A stretch of DNA of 64,000 nucleotides from a virus (IMGVR_UViG_3300026484_000284:1-64000), one strand, 5' to 3'; shown: positions 10,595 through 40,273, counted from the first letter of the stretch. Numbers and translations are program-made. Notes: a model not told the origin generated them from the sequence alone.

Positions 10595-10684
10595 TGGCAG
10601 TGGATGTGGGATTCGAACCCACGGATGCTGTTACACATCAACGGTTTTCAAGACCGCCACCTTCGACCACTCAGACAACCCACT
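10595..10684 (-). tRNA. tRNA-Ser (anticodon UGA), long variable arm, CCA encoded
   Basis: The reverse complement folds as a cloverleaf. Acceptor AGTGGGT/ATCCACT. Anticodon stem GCGGT/ACCGT with loop CTTGAAA. Long extra arm. T-loop GGTTCGAATCC. Confidence 0.7.
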
Positions 10685-10720
10685 TCTTAAATTTATTAAA
10701 ATATAGTTCTTAATTTTTTA

Positions 10721-10796
10721 TGGTATTCCTAACGGGATTTGAACCCGTAATGCTACCTTGAAAGGGTAGTGAGATAACCAATTTCTCCATAGGAAC
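10721..10796 (-). tRNA. tRNA-Glu (anticodon UUC), CCA encoded
   Basis: Acceptor GTTCCTA/TAGGAAT. Anticodon stem CTACC/GGTAG with loop CTTTCAA. T-loop GGTTCAAATCC. Confidence 0.65.
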
Positions 10797-10814
10797 ATTT
10801 TTTAATAACTTTTA

Positions 10815-10890
10815 TGGTAGTCTTAGGAAGAATTGAACTTCCATTTCCCGATTATCAGTCGAGTGTTCTAACCATTTGAACTATAAGACT
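10815..10890 (-). tRNA. tRNA-Ile (anticodon GAU), CCA encoded
   Basis: Acceptor AGTCTTA/TAAGACT. Anticodon loop CTGATAA. T-loop AGTTCAATTCT. Confidence 0.6.
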
Positions 10891-10893
10891 TTA

Positions 10894-10967
10894 TGGATCC
10901 AAGTGAAGGATTCGAACCCTCATAAGTTGTCCCAAAAACAACTGTCCTACCATTAGACGAACTTGGA
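10894..10967 (-). tRNA. tRNA-Gln (anticodon UUG), CCA encoded, U1-A72
   Basis: Acceptor TCCAAGT/ACTTGGA is a perfect 7 bp stem. Anticodon stem GTTGT/ACAAC with loop TTTTGGG. T-loop GGTTCGAATCC. Confidence 0.65.
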
Positions 10968-11268
10968 ACATTAAATGGTCTAAAAAGACCATTTATACAA
11001 ATAAGACCATTTATTTGATTTTAAAGTGAAAATAAACTTCACTATTATTCTTAATGATAATGAAAGGTTCTTTTATTTAACGACTTTGAAATGTATAAAC
11101 TTCCATTATCTTCCATATATAAATATAAGGAACATTTTTAAAAGTCGTGAGATAAACTCAATAAAAAACTTTGAAGGGTAAAAATGTGTTAGTTTAAAAT
11201 TTTTAAATAAGGAACCCTTTTTAAAGTTTTTTATTGAGTTTATTAAAATAAGTTTAATAAGCACTTTG

Positions 11269-11341
11269 CTCTCCCGCTAGGATTCGAACCTAGGACATCC
11301 TGATTAACAGTCAGGTGTTCTACCAACTGAACTACGGGAGA
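11269..11341 (-). tRNA. tRNA-Asn (anticodon GUU); 3' end reads G-CAA, so no CCA is encoded
   Basis: Acceptor TCTCCCG/CGGGAGA. Anticodon stem CCTGA/TCAGG with loop CTGTTAA. T-loop GGTTCGAATCC. Confidence 0.65.
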
Positions 11342-11435
11342 ACAAAATGCTCACAATTTCAATAAAAAACTTTGTAGTGTAAAATTAACCTAATTTAAGG
11401 AACACTATTAAAAGTTTTTTATTGAAATTGTTTTG

Positions 11436-11588
11436 AAATTATAACAAAAAAGTTAAAATAAATTAACTTATTTTGTTAAATTATTTAAGTAAAACGATTT
11501 GCTTTCATCATCTTTTCGTCTTTATAATTATAACAAAAAAGTTAAAATAAATCAACCTATTTTAACACTTTTTGTTAAATTATTTAAA
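11436..11588 (-). promoter_or_regulatory. tandem pair of promoter-like repeats (~55-65 bp each) upstream of the tRNA cluster
   Basis: Two copies of ATAATTATAACAAAAAAGTTAAAATAAAT(T/C)AAC..TATTTT..TTAAATTATTTAA. The minus strand reads TTGATT-N17-TATAAT. Confidence 0.45.
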
Positions 11589-11598
11589 AAAATTGAAT

Positions 11599-12945
11599 TT
11601 AAAAAAATCCAATATCTCCTAAACTTGCTTTTTTCTCTAACTCCCAACCAACAGGTTCCAAAATCGCTTTAATAGGTGCTTCAATGATTTTTTCATATTG
11701 AATATCTTTATCAATATATTTAACTAAATCTGCATCTATTAAAAAGTTTTCATCTTGAAATCCAATAACATTTTGACCTATTGGGTTCGGTATTTTCAAG
11801 TAAATGAATTTAAGTTTAGAACCATTTTCTATTCTTTGATATCTTTCGGTCAATTTTAATTTTTCAATCAATTCATTATGAAGAATTGCTGCTCTACTAT
11901 TCATTGGTGCTGACAATTTTTTGTTATTTTCGTGCTTATAAAAGTTTTCACCTTCTCTTTCATAATCAATACTATTAACACCACTAATTCTAGAACATTC
12001 AGGAACTTTTTTCGGGTCTTCAAGTGCTTCATAATACTCTTTTTTGACACTTTTAAAATAACTTTGAATATCTTTTTCTGTCTTTAATAGTGTCATTTCA
12101 AGTCCTGTTTTCAAATGTTCTTTAGCAAATTCAGGAGTTGAACTTCTTACAACCTCTAATCCTGTTACGGCAATTTTAGGTCTTCCAAAATAAGCACCCT
12201 CATCATAAGTTTTGGCAACAGCATATTTTTTCTTCGCAACGAATAAACCTGAAACCATAACTTTCTCAACTTTTGCCCCCATAAATCCGACTTCGAATAA
12301 ATTGAATGTATCCATAAGAAAATCGACAGTTTCGTTTATTATAGGTTGAATTTTAGTTTCTACGAAAGAAATAATTTTTTTAGTGATTTCAATAACTTCA
12401 TCTTCGGTTAAGTCATTAACATCTTTTTTATATTTCTCAAGCAGTTTTTTACCTATTCTATTTATAGAAACATAACCTGAATTATGACTTAAAATATCAT
12501 TCGCAAAAAAAGTATGATTGTCTTCCACTTCAATATCATAAACATAATTCGTAGTTTTAGGTAATTTAACTATACTAAAATTAGGTGTGAATTTAATGTT
12601 CCCATCTTCTAGAAAAATCAACATATCGTTAAATTTTATTTCGTTTGGAGTTACTTCAATAACTTCATTATCCCTTAAAACCATAATTCCGTGGTCTTCT
12701 GTTATAGTTATTGAGTAATTTTCATCTGTGCTAAATTCAAATTTATAAAGATATTTGTTTGTTTTATGTCTAACTATATTTAAAATCTTTTTTTCTTCAA
12801 TTCCATTATCAAGTTCAAGGAATGATTTAGTATATAAATTTTCATTACTCAAATCTATAATTTCCTTGAAACCCTTATGTGCTTCAATTTTTTTGACTTT
12901 ATCTTTATATTTATTGAATAATTTTTCAATTTGAATTTTTGTCAT
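11599..12945 (-). CDS. family-B DNA polymerase C-terminal fragment (thumb, KKRY motif), preceded by ~158 aa carrying intein blocks B, F and G
   Basis: ITITEDHGIMV (block B, TxxH). VYDIEVEDNHTFFANDILSHN|S (block G, terminal HN, +1 Ser). Then GYVSINRIG...LFVAKKKYAV (KKRY motif). Own SD AAGGAAAAATATG. Confidence 0.8.
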   Translation of the reverse strand: MTKIQIEKLFNKYKDKVKKIEAHKGFKEIIDLSNENLYTKSFLELDNGIEEKKILNIVRHKTNKYLYKFEFSTDENYSITITEDHGIMVLRDNEVIEVTPNEIKFNDMLIFLEDGNIKFTPNFSIVKLPKTTNYVYDIEVEDNHTFFANDILSHNSGYVSINRIGKKLLEKYKKDVNDLTEDEVIEITKKIISFVETKIQPIINETVDFLMDTFNLFEVGFMGAKVEKVMVSGLFVAKKKYAVAKTYDEGAYFGRPKIAVTGLEVVRSSTPEFAKEHLKTGLEMTLLKTEKDIQSYFKSVKKEYYEALEDPKKVPECSRISGVNSIDYEREGENFYKHENNKKLSAPMNSRAAILHNELIEKLKLTERYQRIENGSKLKFIYLKIPNPIGQNVIGFQDENFLIDADLVKYIDKDIQYEKIIEAPIKAILEPVGWELEKKASLGDIGFF

Positions 12946-12959
12946 ATTTTTCCTTTTTT

Positions 12960-13544
12960 TTAAAGAATTTTCATTTTCTTTAGGTCCTCAATATATCCAA
13001 CTACATAAGCAGCAATTTTTTGAATTCTTTTATAAGGTTTTTTGCCAAAAATTTTAGTATGTGAAACAGAAATGTTTTTTGTATTTTCGTTAAATGTTAC
13101 TAAAACCTTTTGATTGTATTTCCAATCCTCTACAAGTATATCAATTTGATTAGGTCTACATAAAACTATACCTTTAACATTCTTTAAATCTTTATTGATA
13201 TTTTCTTCCATAAGTTCTGGATTAAAAAATTTATTGACTTCATTATTAACATTTACATCTTCTTTTTTAAGGTATGTATCGACACTTGAACCCTGTAAAA
13301 TCCCTTGTAAAAAAAGTAAATTTTCTGTTTTATCTGTACCTAATTTTTTACCATAATGCCCGACAGAGTAAATTTTTAATTTACCATTTTTTGAAGGTGT
13401 TATTTTTAACTTTATTTTATCATCTTTATTAACATAAATCACATCTCTTTGATAAAGAAATGGTATTTTTTTAGTATCTAAAAAATTAGCAACTTTTCCC
13501 AATCTTCCTTCAAATTTGAATGAATTTAAAAACCTTTTTTCCAT
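12960..13544 (-). CDS. hypothetical protein (194 aa) inserted inside the split polymerase locus
   Basis: ORF in the same frame as the upstream 78-aa ORF, separated from it by a single TAA. No clear HNH, GIY-YIG or LAGLIDADG motif. Confidence 0.4.
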   Translation of the reverse strand: MEKRFLNSFKFEGRLGKVANFLDTKKIPFLYQRDVIYVNKDDKIKLKITPSKNGKLKIYSVGHYGKKLGTDKTENLLFLQGILQGSSVDTYLKKEDVNVNNEVNKFFNPELMEENINKDLKNVKGIVLCRPNQIDILVEDWKYNQKVLVTFNENTKNISVSHTKIFGKKPYKRIQKIAAYVVGYIEDLKKMKIL

Positions 13545-13781
13545 TTATACTCCTTCATTTATTTTTGTTAATTCTTTTTTTAAATCGTTTTCATCTACGA
13601 AAATAATCTTTTCAATAAGATTACCTGCTTGATAAACTTTTACACCTAAAACATCTTCAAATTCTATAATTTCATCTTCAAGAATAATAGTTACTTTTGC
13701 TTTGTCATTGATAAAATCAACTTCATATGAATTGAATTTGTTATATGCGATGATTCTATCTGATTGAATAATCATTATCAT
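13545..13781 (-). CDS. hypothetical protein (78 aa)
   Basis: Immediately downstream of a consensus promoter at 13803..13838. In frame with the 194-aa ORF across one TAA. Confidence 0.35.
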   Translation of the reverse strand: MIMIIQSDRIIAYNKFNSYEVDFINDKAKVTIILEDEIIEFEDVLGVKVYQAGNLIEKIIFVDENDLKKELTKINEGV

Positions 13782-13802
13782 TTTTGTTCCTTATGTTTTT
13801 AT

Positions 13803-13838
13803 ATTATAATTATAACAAAATAAAATCAAAAAGTCAAG
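13803..13838 (-). promoter_or_regulatory. consensus sigma70-type promoter (TTGACT-N17-TATAAT on minus strand) inside the polymerase split
   Basis: Plus strand reads ATTATAATTATAACAAAATAAAATCAAAAAGTCAAGT. Confidence 0.5.
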
Positions 13839-13874
13839 TAAAATTTAATTTAATTTTGACTTTTTATTAACTTT

Positions 13875-15836
13875 TTAAGCACTTTTTAAATAAATTTCTG
13901 TATTTCCTAAAACACTGTCAGTATCTTGATAAATGATTTTTGACACTTCACTTTTTTCAATATCACTTAAATACTTATCTATATTTTGTCCAGTTAATCT
14001 GTTTAATAATCTACTCATAAAAGTAATACTTGCGGCATTATCTCTATTGAATAATATAAATGCAGCATTTGAAATAGCACCATATAAACTATTTATCTGG
14101 ATTTTTTTTGCCATTTGAATTGCATCTTTAACATTCGCATAAGTTTCTAAAACACTTAAATTCTCAATGTCTTTAATTTTAATATCATAAACATTTTCCC
14201 AAGTGATTTCGTCATTATCGATTTTTTCAATAATTTCATTGACACTTATTAAAGTTGTGCCTTTTTCATTACTTATAATCGCATTAGCAAGTAGCATTCT
14301 ATTCTTTTCTTTCTTTCTATCGTAGTAAATACTTTTAACAATTTCAGGAACAATTCCTTTGATATCTTTTCTATAAAAAGCACAACCAGCAAAACTTAAA
14401 TTATATTTATGGGTTACCATTTTGATGTATCTCATCATTTTTTCATTTTTTAGTAACTTACTCTCATCTTCATCTTTTAAGTAATCTACAATTTTCTTTG
14501 CTTCTTCTGGCAATTCATTATATTGGATATAAGTTGTCGCACATATATTACAGGTATTAATAATTGACGGGAACAGTGAATTATAATCATAACTAAATAA
14601 CCACTCGTGTTTCCCTTTTATAGGATTTTTAACAAAACCACCTACAATGGATTTATCTAATTTACCATTCATACTATCTTCAGGCATAATGAGTTTTCTT
14701 TTCAACCCTAAATGTGTTAAAAATACTGCCCAAGGTTTAACTGTCGCTAATACATCATCCATATTGGCGCCCATTTCCCAGGACATAACCCCAACAATAT
14801 CGAAAAATTTAAGATTATTTTCAAGGTTATTTAAAGTTTCCACATCCATAATTGAATATTCGAAGAACCCATCGTAGTCTTTCTCATAAAATTCATAAAT
14901 ACTCGAAAAATGTTTATAACTAACTTTTCCTTCTCCTTGTTTTAAGTGAATTTTAGTAATGTATTCCAATGTATAAGATGGTAAATCTCCATAAGTAAAT
15001 TTTCTATAAACTTCATAATAATCCAATAAATAATGCCCTGCCATTTTAATTTTGCAGGTATCAACTTTATATAATTTTTCGTCTGTGTTTCTAATAAAGT
15101 CAAGTATCTTATCAAGACTATAATACTTTTTATAAGAACCATCTTTCAACTTGAAATCTATTTTAATTGAATAATCACTTAATGGACTAAATATCTTAGG
15201 ATCTAAACCAACTTGAATTGCTTTAAAAAATATATAAGGATAATCGAAAAGGTGTCCATTATATGCTGTTATAATGGTTGGGTTTAGTTTTTTGATGATT
15301 GTGGCATATCTTTCTAGAATATCTTTATCATCTTTACATTTTATAAATTTTACTTTATTCCATTTTTTCTTCAATTCAAGTGAAGGTTCTTTTGTATAAA
15401 GGATTATCACTTGACCCGTCTCACTATCTTTCATTTGAATATGTGTTATTGGTGCTTTCGCCAAATGAGGTTTTGGGAATTCTCTATTTTTTAAGTCAAT
15501 AGTTTCAATATCAAGATATAAAATTCTAGGTTTTTTATATTCACTTTGCCAAAATTGATGGGCATAAATTATATCCTGTGGCAACTTGATAATAGTTTTC
15601 ATATCTTTATAAGTGTTATAATAATCTTCCATTGCTTTTTTAGTTGGAAATGTTCTTTTTTTCAATTTTGTTTTAAAGTCAATAAAGGTATATTCACCTT
15701 CAGAATCTTGCTCAAATAAAGTCCATTTGAATGTCGCTTTATTGAATTTTCCATCTATTCTTGTATAGTATTCAAAACCACTTTTAAAAATTCCTTCTAA
15801 CATATTTCTCCTTTGTATTTTTATAATTATAATCAA
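13875..15836 (-). CDS. family-B DNA polymerase N-terminal fragment (3'-5' exo + palm, T4 gp43-like), ending in a 13-aa intein block-A-like tail
   Basis: Exo I LYLDIETID, Exo II YNGHLFDYPY, Exo III YSIMDVETL. Motif A DYNSLFPSII, motif B KIQINSLYGA, motif C YQDTDS. Then VLGNTEIYLKSA-stop. Confidence 0.85.
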   Translation of the reverse strand: MIIIIKIQRRNMLEGIFKSGFEYYTRIDGKFNKATFKWTLFEQDSEGEYTFIDFKTKLKKRTFPTKKAMEDYYNTYKDMKTIIKLPQDIIYAHQFWQSEYKKPRILYLDIETIDLKNREFPKPHLAKAPITHIQMKDSETGQVIILYTKEPSLELKKKWNKVKFIKCKDDKDILERYATIIKKLNPTIITAYNGHLFDYPYIFFKAIQVGLDPKIFSPLSDYSIKIDFKLKDGSYKKYYSLDKILDFIRNTDEKLYKVDTCKIKMAGHYLLDYYEVYRKFTYGDLPSYTLEYITKIHLKQGEGKVSYKHFSSIYEFYEKDYDGFFEYSIMDVETLNNLENNLKFFDIVGVMSWEMGANMDDVLATVKPWAVFLTHLGLKRKLIMPEDSMNGKLDKSIVGGFVKNPIKGKHEWLFSYDYNSLFPSIINTCNICATTYIQYNELPEEAKKIVDYLKDEDESKLLKNEKMMRYIKMVTHKYNLSFAGCAFYRKDIKGIVPEIVKSIYYDRKKEKNRMLLANAIISNEKGTTLISVNEIIEKIDNDEITWENVYDIKIKDIENLSVLETYANVKDAIQMAKKIQINSLYGAISNAAFILFNRDNAASITFMSRLLNRLTGQNIDKYLSDIEKSEVSKIIYQDTDSVLGNTEIYLKSA

Positions 15837-15874
15837 TTATAAAAAATTATTAACTCTAATTTTTAATATAACTT

Positions 15875-16945
15875 CTAATGTATAAGTTTTAATTTTATTT
15901 CTGCTTCAAATCCTGTATAGATATTCTTTTTAATCATCTTAGTAATTTTAAATTCTGTATCTTTTTTACCATTCATTTTAGCAGTTTTTAAAATTTCATT
16001 AAAGTCTTTATATGGTATATCATCCCAGATGAAAACACTATAATTTTTAGCATATTTTTTTGATTTTTCCCAACTTGTCATATCTAAATACTGATTATCC
16101 AGACAAAATGTTATTTTTTTATAATGTTTTAAAATGTCATTATTAACATCCGAACCTAATCCCGCTATTTTGTTTTTGAGTGGCATATCGTTTGATAACA
16201 TATCAAAAACACTCTCAAAAACATAAACTTCATCAGTGGTATTAAAATAATTAAAGACCTTAAAATTAGTATTTTCTTCAGGCAAATAAGTAAAAAAGTG
16301 TTTTCTATCTATAGAACGATATTGAAATCCATACCATTTATTATCTTTCAATAAAGGTATAACTATGCCATTTTTTAAATTTATTTCTTTTTCTTCACCT
16401 TTAACATTTAATTTATAAGTACCATTAGCATAATAAAAAAGTTTAAAATGATTTACATTTATACCCCTTGAATAAAGATATCTCATTCCTATTTTGCTTT
16501 CTGTAATTGGTATAAATGGATTATCTATAAACTTTAATTTGACATCTTTTTCTGCAAGGTGTAATTTTTCATCAAAAGATAAAGACTCTTGTAAGGAATT
16601 TAAACTACCAAATCCTTTCTCGTGATTGTATGAGTTAAGTAAATTAAGGTCAAATTCTTTTAAGTAATTGTAAAAAGTTTTATGATAACCACAATTAAAA
16701 CAATGAACTAAATAAGTATCTTTCATTTTATATAAATGAAATCTTTGTTTTTTCCCAGCACTTCTTCCTTCATTACAAATAGGGCACCCTATTGCCACAT
16801 CATTCGTTGATATTTGTGCCTTCCTGTCCCAAGTAGGTTGAGTCTGGAGAAAATATCTTTTTTCAATCTCCATAATTACTTCCTTCATTTTTAAAATTAA
16901 TTCTTTTAATATAATCAATTTTTTCGTTTGTATCCATTGATTCAT
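15875..16945 (-). CDS. DNA primase (T4 gp61-like; N-terminal zinc ribbon + TOPRIM)
   Basis: CPICNEG...CFNCG zinc ribbon. Downstream acidic TOPRIM-like segments. Position next to the polymerase. Confidence 0.55.
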   Translation of the reverse strand: MNQWIQTKKLIILKELILKMKEVIMEIEKRYFLQTQPTWDRKAQISTNDVAIGCPICNEGRSAGKKQRFHLYKMKDTYLVHCFNCGYHKTFYNYLKEFDLNLLNSYNHEKGFGSLNSLQESLSFDEKLHLAEKDVKLKFIDNPFIPITESKIGMRYLYSRGINVNHFKLFYYANGTYKLNVKGEEKEINLKNGIVIPLLKDNKWYGFQYRSIDRKHFFTYLPEENTNFKVFNYFNTTDEVYVFESVFDMLSNDMPLKNKIAGLGSDVNNDILKHYKKITFCLDNQYLDMTSWEKSKKYAKNYSVFIWDDIPYKDFNEILKTAKMNGKKDTEFKITKMIKKNIYTGFEAEIKLKLIH

Positions 16946-20267: not shown

Positions 20268-20305
20268 ATATTATAATTATAACAAAAAAGAAACAAAAAG
20301 TCAAG
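20268..20305 (-). promoter_or_regulatory. consensus sigma70-type promoter
   Basis: Plus strand reads TATTATAATTATAACAAAAAAGAAACAAAAAGTCAAGT. Confidence 0.5.
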
Positions 20306-33059: not shown

Positions 33060-33096
33060 TTATAATTATAACAAAAAAGAAACAAAAAGTCAAGTA
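33060..33096 (-). promoter_or_regulatory. consensus sigma70-type promoter
   Basis: Plus strand reads TATAATTATAACAAAAAAGAAACAAAAAGTCAAGT. Confidence 0.5.
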
Positions 33097-36845: not shown

Positions 36846-38027
36846 TTAAATTCTTCTTTTCGAAAGAAATTCTTCTATATTATCAATGGCAATTTTAACA
36901 CTTTCTTCTGATGTTTTTATTTTTATATATTCGACATCATCAATTATGTTATTTTTACCATCCACCCAAACCTTTATACTATCACGGGAATTCATTCTAA
37001 TTTCTATATATTGTGGTTCTAGTACATAATGAATCTTTCTATTTGTTTTATCACCTGTAACCACGATGTTCTTACTATCGATTGGTAAAATAACACCACC
37101 ATTATTCTTATTGATACCTGTACTTCCTTGAGCAGTTGAAAAAATTAAACCACCTCCACTAAATTCATCAAAAATGTTATTTCTGTCATTTACTTCAAAA
37201 TGAATCCAACTATTCATATCCCCACCTATACAAATATCGTTAAAAGCATAATAAGTTTTATTTCTTATTTCTGCTTCAAGTAAATTAAGATGTAATATAT
37301 GATAATTCCCCGATTCTTCATTTTCGTTCATTAAAAAATTCACTCTTCCACGAGCGACACCATAAAAAACTTTATTTTTGTGCCTAAATTTATTTATTGC
37401 CCTTAAAAGTGTTCCATCTCCACCATAACATTTTATGACCTGTGGGTATTCAACTATTTCAGTATATTTATCTTTAAAAAGTGTTTTACCCCAGAAGTGA
37501 ATACTTTTAAGATATTCATAAACTTTTTCCGATAAATGTTTTTTTGCTGTTATTTCGCATTTTCTTGAATGAGTAGCGTGAATACAAACTCCATCATCGT
37601 GAATCTGGTCTAATTCGAAAAGGTCATAACCTTCATTCTTAAATATAACTTGATAATTTTCATAATAAAAAGTTTCATTTTTAAAAATAAAATCTTGTTT
37701 ATCTTCGGGTTTTAAGTGGGTAAAAAATACAATTTCTTCTTTTGGGTTTTTTGAAAATTGATTAAATACCTTTTCAACATTTGCGAACCACTCATCCCAA
37801 TCATAAAAATCTTCAAGTCCAATTACTTTTAAATCAGGATATACTCTTTTTATCATCTTTTTTCTTTGTTTGAATGATAATGGATTCTTATCATTTATTT
37901 TATTTTTAGAACCCACAATAATTACAGGTTCTAAATTTTGTTTTTTAATAGTTTCAATAATTTTTTGATGGGCAAGTGTTAAAGGTTGAAATCTACCGAT
38001 TAACACCCCATATTTTTTATTCTCCAT
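36846..38027 (-). CDS. NMN/NaMN adenylyltransferase fused to an NAD-kinase-like domain
   Basis: N-terminal GVLIGRFQPLTLAHQ (HxGH-type cytidylyltransferase). C-terminal GGDGTLL, GRVNFL and FSTAQGSTGINKNNGGVILP (NAD kinase motifs). Confidence 0.6.
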   Translation of the reverse strand: MENKKYGVLIGRFQPLTLAHQKIIETIKKQNLEPVIIVGSKNKINDKNPLSFKQRKKMIKRVYPDLKVIGLEDFYDWDEWFANVEKVFNQFSKNPKEEIVFFTHLKPEDKQDFIFKNETFYYENYQVIFKNEGYDLFELDQIHDDGVCIHATHSRKCEITAKKHLSEKVYEYLKSIHFWGKTLFKDKYTEIVEYPQVIKCYGGDGTLLRAINKFRHKNKVFYGVARGRVNFLMNENEESGNYHILHLNLLEAEIRNKTYYAFNDICIGGDMNSWIHFEVNDRNNIFDEFSGGGLIFSTAQGSTGINKNNGGVILPIDSKNIVVTGDKTNRKIHYVLEPQYIEIRMNSRDSIKVWVDGKNNIIDDVEYIKIKTSEESVKIAIDNIEEFLSKRRI

Positions 38028-38042
38028 GTGCCATCCTTTATT

Positions 38043-38780
38043 TTATACTAATTTTTCCCATTGACAATTTCCTGAAATTGTCCCATTACTAAACAAATAT
38101 CTAACATTTAACTTTGGATTTGTTTCATTATAATCCCAATACCATATGTTAGGATAATCTTTTAATTTTATTGCCCCGTTTTCCATTTTAATGGCATTTT
38201 TTGATTTGTCAATGTTTTCGTTTCCTATATTTTGAAAAGCATTATAAAAAGTTGATTGCCATCTTTTTTCTTTTGATGAATTCACTTCTGGTCTAATTGT
38301 CATTTTAAATTCAAAAATATCTTTAAAATTTTTAAACCATTCATCCAAAATATGAAAATTTTTATCAGTTATAACAAGTGATAATCTAATATCAAAATTT
38401 TCATCTTTATGATTTTTTAATACATTAAACATTTCTTTATTAAAATTTTCATCTATACTAAAAACAAAAGAATCATAACCAGCATTTTTTGCTGTTTTGA
38501 TAACATTTAAGTTTCTTGTGTGTAATGACACTTTTAAATGCTTATTAAAACTTTTAGCAATTGAAGGAATTTTTGATGACTCTTTTACAAATGAAGGGTC
38601 AGATGTATCCCCACTTATTGATAATAAATCAGTCATATCTGCAAAACATCCAATAAATGATTCCCATTTAGTTGAAAAATGGGGTTTTATGTCTTTTCTG
38701 ATATTTTTGCCTACACAAAAATCACAATTAAATTTACATTTACCACCTGCTAAAATACTTATATAATCAAATTTTTTCAA
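38043..38780 (-). CDS. radical SAM protein (245 aa), function unknown
   Basis: CKFNCDFCVG (Cx3Cx2C) at residues 15-22. Compact activase-like size. Confidence 0.5.
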   Translation of the reverse strand: MKKFDYISILAGGKCKFNCDFCVGKNIRKDIKPHFSTKWESFIGCFADMTDLLSISGDTSDPSFVKESSKIPSIAKSFNKHLKVSLHTRNLNVIKTAKNAGYDSFVFSIDENFNKEMFNVLKNHKDENFDIRLSLVITDKNFHILDEWFKNFKDIFEFKMTIRPEVNSSKEKRWQSTFYNAFQNIGNENIDKSKNAIKMENGAIKLKDYPNIWYWDYNETNPKLNVRYLFSNGTISGNCQWEKLV

Positions 38781-38805
38781 TTTAATTCCTTGTTATTTTA
38801 TTACA

Positions 38806-38840
38806 ATATAATTATAACTAAAAAGAAAATAAAAGTCAAG
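38806..38840 (-). promoter_or_regulatory. consensus sigma70-type promoter
   Basis: Plus strand reads ATATAATTATAACTAAAAAGAAAATAAAAGTCAAG. Confidence 0.45.
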
Positions 38841-38857
38841 GAAATATCCCGACTTTT

Positions 38858-40273
38858 TTAAAATTTATCTATATTTTCTCTAATTTTGTCAAGTGTTATC
38901 TCATTTTTAACTTTCCCATTTTCGAAAACAACTTTTAGCATTTCAATATCATTAGGTTGTTTCTCACTTTCTTTAATACAGATAATTTCGTCATCTCTTT
39001 TAATAGTGATAACTTTACCTTTTTTAGATTGTTTTTTGCTATCTGTGATTGGGTTTTTAAACACTTCGACACCAACTTTTTTACCATCTACCATTCTTTC
39101 AATATAAGAACATTTCATTGCAAAACTGAATGTATCTCTATCTATTCCTGTTTGCCCTAATTGTGTTCCACTACCAAAAACAAAATTTTCAGCAGCATAT
39201 CCTTTTTCTATGAATGTTTTAAGAATATTTTCGATTGTAGTTGGATTTATTCCATCGCTCCAAAGGATTCCTGCCCAACTGCTTGCTTTCTTTCCATTTA
39301 TTTCAATATCAAAAACATTATTTTTTTCCATAATTTCAAGTATTTTAGAAATCACTTCGATTGGATTACCACTATCTGGACGAATGACAATTTTTTGTTT
39401 TCTCTCTTGAATTTTACTTCTTATATAAGAATTTTCACTTGTAACTTTTTCCACGAAATTAAAAACATCGTAACTATCTGCCACAAATGATAGAATCGCA
39501 CCTTCTTTGTCATTTTCTTTGACCATTCTTTCTACAAATTTTATTTCTTTTTCGGTTGAACCCTCAGCATTTGCCGTAGTTGAACTATGTTCTGTCGCGA
39601 AAACACTAAAAGCACTTATTTCAGCACCATAGTAATCTCTTGCGAATTTAAGTGAATTAAAATTATCCGTTCCCATAAAAATACAATTATGAGCAAAACC
39701 ACTTATTGCTGCTGATTCTACACTTGTCATACTTCTATCCCCAAAATTGTGGTATGCAAATCTTGCCCATTCTTCACTTCCGTATTTTTTAAGCATTTCA
39801 AAAACTTGTTTGCTTTTAGTCGTGATAACAGTTGGATACCATATTTTCATAAGCATTGTTTCTACCCAACCAACGACCCAAGGAACATTTTCGTCAGTGC
39901 TTTCTACCACTACAAGTGGCACTCCAGGTTTAACTTTTACACCCTCTTCAACTGCTTTTATTCTGATGGGTATTTTACCATTTAGTTGCTTAGCAATATA
40001 CATCCATCCGTCATAATTGAAATCTATTCCGTGAAATTTTGCGAATTCTGCTGCTTCTTCAACCGATTCAGTTGTAATTTTTTGACTAAGGTATCTTTTT
40101 ATATAGTATTGAAGACCACTTATAGTGATTTCTTCAGGTCCTTTTCTTGCTTCGATATAATCATACATATAACTCATATCTTTTGGGTATTGTTTATGGT
40201 GCCCATACTTATAACTATCTGCCATCATTATGATATTTTCATTTTTCATTTTATTTCTCCTTAAATTTAACAA
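38858..40273 (-). CDS. nadV: nicotinamide phosphoribosyltransferase (NadV/NAMPT)
   Basis: N-terminal MMADSYKYGHHKQYP matches the NAMPT TDSYK..H motif. About 470 aa, the typical size. Confidence 0.7.
   Translation of the reverse strand: MLNLRRNKMKNENIIMMADSYKYGHHKQYPKDMSYMYDYIEARKGPEEITISGLQYYIKRYLSQKITTESVEEAAEFAKFHGIDFNYDGWMYIAKQLNGKIPIRIKAVEEGVKVKPGVPLVVVESTDENVPWVVGWVETMLMKIWYPTVITTKSKQVFEMLKKYGSEEWARFAYHNFGDRSMTSVESAAISGFAHNCIFMGTDNFNSLKFARDYYGAEISAFSVFATEHSSTTANAEGSTEKEIKFVERMVKENDKEGAILSFVADSYDVFNFVEKVTSENSYIRSKIQERKQKIVIRPDSGNPIEVISKILEIMEKNNVFDIEINGKKASSWAGILWSDGINPTTIENILKTFIEKGYAAENFVFGSGTQLGQTGIDRDTFSFAMKCSYIERMVDGKKVGVEVFKNPITDSKKQSKKGKVITIKRDDEIICIKESEKQPNDIEMLKVVFENGKVKNEITLDKIRENIDKF

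Follow-up and report, generated by a model that had tools for sequence, protein, structure and literature searches.

A T4-like phage DNA polymerase divided at motif C by a predicted split intein with a 13-residue N-terminal piece

Introduction

How is a replicative DNA polymerase made when its gene is broken in two within a catalytic motif? The question is raised by a 64,000-nucleotide (nt) stretch of viral DNA, IMGVR_UViG_3300026484_000284 (the window, over which all coordinates are counted; all genes of interest lie on its minus strand), in which a family-B polymerase is encoded as two separate pieces. A prediction made earlier from the sequence alone placed an intein at the motif-C break and assigned no more than about 13 of its residues to the N-terminal side, and on this point profile hidden Markov models (HMMs), an AlphaFold2 (AF2) model, homologues and purifying selection all agree with it. 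Judging from sequence comparison and modelling, we consider it probable that the window polymerase is joined by protein trans-splicing of a naturally split, class-1, cysteine-free motif-C intein.

Results

Two genes for one polymerase

The two open reading frames (ORFs) of the original prediction are present on the minus strand as described, including the Shine-Dalgarno (SD) sequence and ATG that belong to the C-terminal ORF, the ITITEDHGIMV motif, intein block G and the KKKYA thumb. Their parts are the following (aa, amino acids; IntN and IntC, the N- and C-terminal intein pieces):

13875..15836, minus strand: N-terminal ORF, read from a TTG; 642 aa when counted from the ATG at 15803, the more probable start
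13917..15803, minus strand: N-extein, 629 aa of a T4 gp43-like family-B polymerase (exonuclease, palm, and fingers through motif C, ...IIYQDTD)
13878..13916, minus strand: IntN, 13 aa by translation, SVLGNTEIYLKSA, with Ser1 at 13914..13916
13875..13877, minus strand: TAA stop that closes the N-terminal gene, in the intein hairpin turn, found in the window and in the related contigs L002 and L090
11599..12945, minus strand: C-terminal ORF, 448 aa, with AAGGA upstream of its own ATG
12481..12945, minus strand: IntC, 155 aa (MTKIQIEKLF...DILSHN), from PF14890, TIGR01443 and alignment with 20 homologous inteins
11599..12480, minus strand: C-extein, 293 aa plus stop, with Ser+1 at 12478..12480, SGYVSINRIG..., the KKKYA motif and the thumb

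The ATG at 15803 is preferred as the start of the N-terminal ORF because the gene calls of L002 and L090 agree with it. By translation, the 3' end of this ORF reads ...KIIYQDTD SVLGNTEIYLKSA TAA; the C-terminal ORF opens with MTKIQIEKLFNKY..., holds ITITEDHGIMV, and then passes through VYDIEVEDNHTFFANDILSHN directly into SGYVSINRIG...FVAKKKYAV, the polymerase thumb. The N-extein matches the Pfam families DNA_pol_B_exo1 and DNA_pol_B, the C-extein matches the DNA polymerase profiles phrog_262 and phrog_1918, and by tblastn the polymerase is 27-29% identical to the gp43-type polymerases of Vibrio, Campylobacter and Synechococcus T4-like phages. The intein parts sit on separate genes, each fused to one extein, an arrangement that is seen in three assemblies. 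By translation the whole intein has 168 aa and zero cysteines; the intein part of the C-terminal ORF, originally put at ~158 aa, comes to 155 when counted, and the predicted spliced polymerase comes to 922 aa instead of the ~940 aa first estimated, with the junction IIYQDTD-SGYVSINRIG and the junction peptide YQDTDSGYVSINR.

Evidence that the 13-residue tail belongs to the intein

Profile searches for the intein blocks, the check that had been proposed for this locus, score above their cutoffs for all three profiles. Pfam PF14890 (Intein_splicing) matches residues 15-113 of the C-terminal ORF over profile positions 10-96, with 55.5 bits (cutoff 35.8), and TIGR01443 (intein_Cterm) matches residues 134-156 with 33.1 bits for the whole ORF and 33-36 bits overall (cutoff 15.6). 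For TIGR01445 (intein_Nterm; cutoff 24.5 bits), the C piece alone scores 25.6 bits over positions 16-83, and joining the tail to it raises the score to 33.0 bits over positions 2-83; the 13 residues contribute 7.4 bits and profile positions 2-15. The intein-family HMM that we built matches the C-terminal ORF only from position 11 of 161. The tail aligns gap-free with the first strand of contiguous homologues (SVVGDTIIETEK...) and with that of the characterised split intein PolB16 OarG (SVHGKTHVFIRS), and the contiguous metagenomic homologues, DTD/SVVGDTIIETEKFGKIKIENYYDY..., likewise align gap-free with the two window pieces taken together, DTD/SVLGNTEIYLKSA (stop) plus MTKIQIEKLFNKY.... By these alignments and scores, the 13-aa tail is part of the intein, beyond chance.

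We then modelled the fused intein sequence with AF2, with 24 homologues as the alignment. The model has a complete horseshoe HINT (Hedgehog/intein) fold with a predicted local distance difference test (pLDDT) score of 90.8 and a predicted template modelling (pTM) score of 0.86; strands E15-L18 and T23-Q26 pair as the first β-hairpin, of which the tail forms strand 1, and the split point (between A21 and M22 in model numbering, A13 and M14 in intein numbering) falls in the turn of this hairpin, which is the S1 position of PMC13014065, an atypical split of the PolB16 OarG/VidaL kind with an IntN of about 15 aa. A Foldseek search with the model returned inteins throughout, many of them with a probability of 1.00, the top match being Aes123 PolB1 (9HTH, TM 0.83-0.88) and PolB16 (8CPN) being included. 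The tail had originally been likened to an 11-aa N-fragment of the Ssp DnaB intein called 'S11'; the structural equivalence holds, but the name does not, as a break that leaves the 11-aa N-fragment is termed 'S1', and 'S11' denotes the one with a 6-aa C-fragment (PMC3620165, PMC13014065).

The class-1 catalytic set is complete, with S1, T95-E-D-H98 in block B, D150 and H157 in block F, H167-N168 in block G, and S+1, and these columns are invariant or nearly so in the family alignments. The NX motif, which is critical in Ser1 inteins (Pasch et al. 2023, PMC10189870), is present as R72-H73, and its His column is invariant in 25 homologues. Removal of the intein restores conserved sequence: the unsplit, intein-less relatives read IYQDTD-SAYININKIV (L010, whose C-terminal region is 48% identical to the window polymerase) and IYQDTD-SGYIHFDKVV (L096 and L097). 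The YQDTD-SGYVSI junction proposed earlier is therefore a sensible one, since these homologues, the unsplit polymerases with which comparison had been advised, read YQDTD-S[AG]Y at the same place. No further inteins were found in the window with the family HMM.

Conservation and selection

The TAA stop is also present in the independent ENA contig L002 (99.67% identical) and in the JGI contig L090 (87% nucleotide identity). The latter is syntenic with the window across the N-terminal ORF, a 13-aa tail SVLGDTEIYLKSA, a stop at the same codon, both small ORFs of the region between the halves, and the C-terminal ORF. These contigs bear on the explanation that we rate as close to negligible, namely that faulty assembly or sequencing produced the split, or that a defective genome recently acquired an inactivating insertion. 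The data are metagenomic and the 13-aa form occurs in one lineage only (the window, L002, L090 and L091), which speaks for such an explanation; the arrangement recurs, however, in three or four assemblies obtained independently from different samples, at 99.7%, ~91% and 87% nucleotide identity, and the frames are intact at a synonymous divergence (dS) of ~0.6, which points to long-term maintenance.

Ratios of nonsynonymous to synonymous divergence (dN/dS) were calculated by the Nei-Gojobori method for the window against L090, at this dS of ~0.6:

N-extein: 0.066
IntN, 13 codons: 0.055, with 3 synonymous changes and 1 conservative non-synonymous change (N5D), the latter towards the family consensus
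IntC, 155 codons: 0.072
C-extein: 0.059
ORF78, first small ORF between the halves: 0.24
ORF194, second small ORF between the halves: 0.29

The intein is as constrained as its host polymerase. It had been suggested as an alternative that the polymerase works as two non-covalent subunits and that the intein remnant is decaying; a second version of this alternative is that the intein pieces splice no more but serve as a docking module. Decay is contradicted by these ratios because the values for the intein (0.07) and the extein (0.06) are about equal at this dS; docking is weighed in the Discussion.

A promoter and two-gene cassette between the halves

The N-terminal and C-terminal ORFs do not adjoin: ~930 nt, missed in the original prediction, separate them. 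This gap holds a hairpin, a promoter and two ORFs:

13828..13865, minus strand: AU-rich hairpin followed by a U-run; RNA fold with minimum free energy -10 and centroid -8.8 kcal/mol, z = -2.1 versus shuffles
13809..13837, minus strand: σ70-type promoter, TTGACT, 17 nt, TATAAT, with an extended -10 (TG), TGTTATAAT; 11/12 consensus matches
13545..13781, minus strand: cargo ORF 1 (ORF78), 78 aa, kept in L090 as 82 aa
12960..13544, minus strand: cargo ORF 2 (ORF194), 194 aa, kept in L090

The hairpin, as folded in silico, may act as a terminator or attenuator behind the N-terminal gene; a consensus terminator scan did not call it, because its G-C pairs are too few. The promoter is so positioned that it would probably drive both the two-ORF cassette and the C-terminal gene. 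Near-copies of it (TTGACT, a T-rich 17-nt spacer, and TGTTATAAT) lie at 20276..20304 and 33065..33093, also on the minus strand, and similarity to the homologous intergenic sequence of L090 (5535-5658) is seen at about ten sites across the window; this recurrence suggests a repeated regulatory element of the phage.

Both cargo ORFs have ribosome-binding sites and evolve under purifying selection. ORF78 has no match in Pfam or NCBIfam, and neither does ORF194, in which no nuclease motif was recognisable. For ORF194 a weak match to phrog_17418 is the only profile hit (E 1.3e-4), tblastn gave no match among phages, and an exhaustive HMMER search of 1.84 billion representative proteins returned a single homologue, of 78% identity; the AF2 model of ORF194, built without an alignment, has a pLDDT of 40 and is unusable. 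We considered both ORFs as homing endonucleases, for which Pfam, PHROGs and NCBIfam gave nothing usable. Comparison by phmmer with all ORFs of the related loci described below, including their Vsr-like ORFs, showed no similarity, and the idea that ORF78 is a detached copy of the extra 'LYKV...' hairpin of those relatives was rejected on a hairpin-profile E value of 2.6.

The contents of the gap also bear on a very improbable explanation, in which a group I or II intron, or ribosomal bypassing, removes the interruption at the level of RNA or translation and the intein then splices in cis from a contiguous precursor. Phage polymerase genes are established intron targets, and the interruption contains ORFs, as do many mobile introns. 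No Rfam match, group I and II introns included, was obtained in 11000..16500 at E values up to 10, however, and the gap has its own near-consensus promoter and two ORFs that carry ribosome-binding sites and are under purifying selection. Further, relatives have unrelated cargo of 90 nt to 3.5 kb in the same loop, and the C-terminal ORF begins, from an SD and ATG of its own, precisely at the start point of PolB16-type IntC genes.

Four states of one intein allele

The Ser1/Ser+1 intein allele at the DTD/S site occurs in four states: contiguous, canonically split, split in the first-hairpin loop with a long N piece, and the 13-aa form. Contiguous mini-inteins of 156-190 aa are found in P0009, P0013, P0014, P0017-P0020, P0022, P0027, P0028, P0031 and L092, and canonical splits in the cultured Campylobacter phage F379 (divided into 115 aa and 39 aa), L012, L013, L017, L098 and L102. 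Phage F379 (L001, MT932329.1, 1257-5361) is annotated with two 'putative DNA polymerase' genes and two 'hypothetical proteins' between them; this arrangement is a canonical split intein of the same family. Of the two intervening ORFs, one matches profile positions 31-98 and the other positions 114-307 of phrog_22677, a family of putative Vsr-like endonucleases, and by these matches they look like a disrupted Vsr-like endonuclease.

Loop splits with a long N piece (36-49 aa, including an extra LYKVxxxxGxxxY hairpin) are present in L003, L004, L005, L007 and L008. The cargo in their loops is varied, from 90 nt to 3.5 kb: ORFs of ~400 aa that resemble Vsr/DUF559 in L004, L007 and L008 (a weak assignment), and an unrelated 178-aa ORF in L003. 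The gap of L005 (1533-4908) holds ORFs of 236, 158 and 548 aa with dense CxxC-type cysteine repeats and a repeated N-terminal module, ...NIATEDFLKEHNITFEEFEKQNETN.... Some of these relatives have the polymerase in at least three pieces (L008, 1006-3363; L004, 3391-3837; L005, 966-1469); in L008 the N part ends just after motif A (...DFNSLYPSIMDMLN, then a stop) and a short middle piece spans motif B to the N-intein. No intein was seen at these extra breaks in L004, L005 and L008.

The 13-aa form is confined to the window lineage, that is, the window, L002 and L090, with L091 holding the C half only. An IMG/VR scan with a single protein query gave no matches, and an alignment-based scan gave 80 loci, nearly all of them intein-less cyanophage-type polymerases, with three canonical splits and no S1 split among the 80. 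With the last 214 aa of the N-terminal ORF as the query, the search for other short-tailed N halves returned one fragment only. In a neighbour-joining tree of the inteins, the window lineage stands near PolB16 at the end of a long branch, and the tree does not separate a shared from an independent origin of the two S1 splits.

Two of the relatives suggest how such a split comes about. The flanks of L092 and L004 are >99.5% identical, and L004 has a 1194-bp insertion in the first-hairpin loop (L092 2440-2520; L004 3776-5045). The intein of L092 is contiguous (...KKGLEEATKIEEITEISIGELY...), whereas that of L004 is split at this point (...LVIEFNGDIWHANP...) by an insert with a 412-aa Vsr/DUF559-like ORF, and the insertion introduces both an N-side stop and a C-side start. 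By sequence comparison, the two contigs are natural 'before' and 'after' states of gene breaking as modelled by Dassa et al., here at the first-hairpin loop and not at the canonical endonuclease site. By analogy, the split in the window most likely arose through invasion of the same loop by a free-standing gene cassette, because this near-identical pair shows such an event.

Phage and genome setting

The window has ~25% G+C with nearly all genes on a single strand, and encodes a UvsW-type helicase, T4 RNA ligase 2, an RNase H-like 5'-3' exonuclease and NAD-salvage enzymes. From this gene content, together with the 27-29% identity to gp43, we assign it to an uncultured T4-like phage; its nearest relatives are hydrothermal-vent metagenome contigs and related JGI samples. 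Two further groups of genes lie at:

10595-11341, minus strand: five tRNA genes (Ser-TGA, Glu-TTC, Ile-GAT, Gln-TTG, Asn-GTT), in a cluster that follows immediately on the C-terminal gene of the polymerase
36846-40273, minus strand: NAD-salvage pair made up of a NAMPT-like nicotinamide phosphoribosyltransferase and a second protein that combines cytidylyltransferase-like and NAD-kinase C-terminal domains

Such NAD-salvage pairs occur in some large T4-like phages.

Discussion

Splicing or docking

In the mechanism that we propose, the two polymerase fragments would be made separately, the second probably co-transcribed with the cargo genes from the gap promoter. The 13-residue tail would dock on IntC as its missing first β-strand, probably aided by a natural affinity of the polymerase halves that offsets the small interface; we suggest such extein assistance because functional non-covalent split gp43 enzymes exist and because the other loop-split relatives keep a longer N piece. 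The completed HINT domain would then carry out an N-O acyl shift at Ser1, transesterification to Ser+1, cyclisation of Asn168 and an O-N shift, to yield a 922-aa polymerase with the junction ...YQDTD-SGYVSINR....

Several observations weigh against trans-splicing. The alignment behind the AF2 model was drawn from contiguous homologues, so that the model shows compatibility of the tail with the fold and not binding. The window intein differs from the family consensus in a few conserved places, with LP instead of LG, NHTFF instead of NHNFF and SHN instead of VHN. All other loop-split relatives (L003, L004, L005, L007 and L008) have a far longer N piece, and because they all keep 36-49 aa the binding of the 13-aa piece may be weak; PolB16, whose N piece has 15 aa, is itself slow (half-life 20-150 min, k about 1e-4 to 6e-4 per second) and gives a C-cleavage side product (PMC10189870). 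Purifying selection on the intein piece would likewise be expected for a purely non-covalent docking module. While anatomy, homology, modelled fold, residues, selection and junction are observed, the splicing of this intein, and a useful rate for it, are what we infer.

Weak binding of the tail, and the extra polymerase breaks without a visible intein in L004, L005 and L008, would sit well with two non-covalent subunits, and as cited in Dassa et al. (PMC2677866) there are precedents in the split gp43 without inteins of T4-related Aeromonas phages and in a fragmented NrdA assembled via interaction domains from a mobile element. We nevertheless consider it unlikely. Decay is excluded by an intein dN/dS of 0.07 that equals that of the extein; S1, the NX His, T-x-x-H, D150, H-N and S+1 are all kept, which a docking module would not need; the break lies inside catalytic motif C, so that 155 foreign residues would remain beside the active-site aspartates; and the closest characterised analogue, PolB16, splices. 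Trans-splicing thus remains by far the reading that we favour.

Implications

On this reading, an essential replicative polymerase has long been maintained (dS ~0.6) in a form that would rely on a 13-residue tail for its assembly. As one intein is found in this family in contiguous, canonically split and early-split form, the evolution of the split site can be traced, which is of use for the study of mobile elements in phage replication genes. Short N-inteins can be prepared as synthetic peptides, and inteins that lack cysteine function in an oxidising environment; shorter or better short-N inteins are explicitly sought (PMC13014065, 2026), and the only natural intein that so far joins a short N piece with cysteine independence, PolB16 (15 aa), is slow. 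If its splicing is efficient, the window intein would meet this stated engineering need, and the relatives with an IntN of 36-49 aa are also candidates.

A more ambitious proposal combines four parts: that this is the shortest natural N-intein (13 aa), in a cysteine-free intein; that the L092/L004 pair shows a loop invasion turning a cis-intein into an S1-split one; that the loop is a second natural hotspot of gene breaking; and that the cargo pair is a new mobile or splicing-related module. For all four jointly, we put the chance at slightly below even.

Comparison with known systems

The closest known system is PolB16 OarG, a natural S1-split class-1 Ser1/Ser+1 intein that follows ...GDTD in a PolB-type polymerase, with an IntN of 15 aa, an IntC of 168 aa and crystal structures 8CPN and 8CPO (Pasch et al. 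2023, Chem Sci, PMC10189870). Its trans-splicing in vitro reaches yields of up to 89%, and it also splices with a synthetic N peptide and when co-expressed in E. coli (PMC10189870). Its location in a PolB shows that natural split inteins with a very short N piece extend beyond terminases, the known examples named in the original prediction. PolB16 and the window intein are alike in the DTD motif-C site, the S1 split, Ser1/Ser+1, class 1 and an NX motif of (R/K)-H; the PolB16 pieces in the PDB chain, SVHGKTHVFIRSIKN and MQEAKIDIKSLYD (IntC MQEAKIDIKSLY..., MQEAKIDIKSLYDSL...), have boundaries that align with those of the window, SVLGNTEIYLKSA and MTKIQIEKLFNKY, and the two are ~33% identical over the intein (phmmer E 7e-7). 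They differ in length (15 + 168 aa versus 13 + 155 aa, the window intein being without the T84-D101 insertion of PolB16), in cysteines (two non-catalytic ones in PolB16, none in the window intein) and in source (sheep gut metagenome, whereas the closest relatives of the window lineage are hydrothermal-vent contigs), and PolB16 has been characterised biochemically whereas the window intein is known here from sequence and a model. PolB16-like IntC genes of rumen and gut metagenomes share one start point, as does the window IntC. In two such rumen/gut loci, L170 and L171, the N half is not adjacent upstream, unlike the window halves, which are 930 nt apart; the ORFs directly upstream of the PolB16-type IntC there are unrelated to polymerase, and the halves of this type of intein may be genomically uncoupled. 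L170 also codes for a T4-type portal protein and a PARP-domain protein.

The inteins of Aes123 PolB1 (Aeromonas phage gp43, 9HTH) and of the F379/CP21 type share with the window intein the DTD/S site in a T4-like gp43, Ser1/Ser+1 and cysteine independence. Aes123 PolB1, the best structural match to the window model, is ~30% identical to it, and the F379 intein is 40% identical to that of the window (VTEDHSIMVLRNSELIEVKP against ITEDHGIMVLRDNEVIEVTP). Both types are canonically split (IntN 100-115 aa, IntC ~39 aa), whereas the window intein is split in the first hairpin; F379, like the window, has two ORFs between the halves, but those of F379 are Vsr-like (phrog_22677) and those of the window are not.

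In 'fractured genes' (Dassa et al. 2009, NAR, PMC2677866), the two parts of a split intein flank a free-standing homing endonuclease gene. The window shares with them halves that are close together on the same strand, a cassette that is expressed independently under control elements of its own, and a location in phage DNA-metabolism genes. It differs from them in that the break is at the S1 loop and not at the canonical endonuclease-insertion site, and no homing endonuclease gene was found in its gap, as ORF78 and ORF194 are without a nuclease signature in Pfam, PHROGs and NCBIfam; the relatives L004, L007 and L008 weakly show this feature through their Vsr/DUF559-like gap ORF.

Engineered S1 splits (Ssp DnaB S1 and M86, Ssp DnaX, Ter ThyX) demonstrate that an IntN of 11-12 aa can suffice for trans-splicing (PMC3620165, PMC13014065); their split position is equivalent to that of the window, but they are artificial and dependent on Cys1. 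The S1 position does not by itself guarantee activity, since 10 of the 14 inteins split there were inactive (PMC3620165). Among natural inteins, a paper of March 2026 describes a 15-aa N piece as 'record-short' and gives a natural range of 15-37 aa (PMC13014065), and our literature search found no reports newer than that paper. The kind of intein is thus already known from PolB16 OarG, and the gain is incremental and not conceptual; what is new in the window is a distinct lineage, an IntN two residues shorter than the published record, the lack of any cysteine, nearby halves with non-nuclease cargo between them, and family evidence on the origin of an early split.

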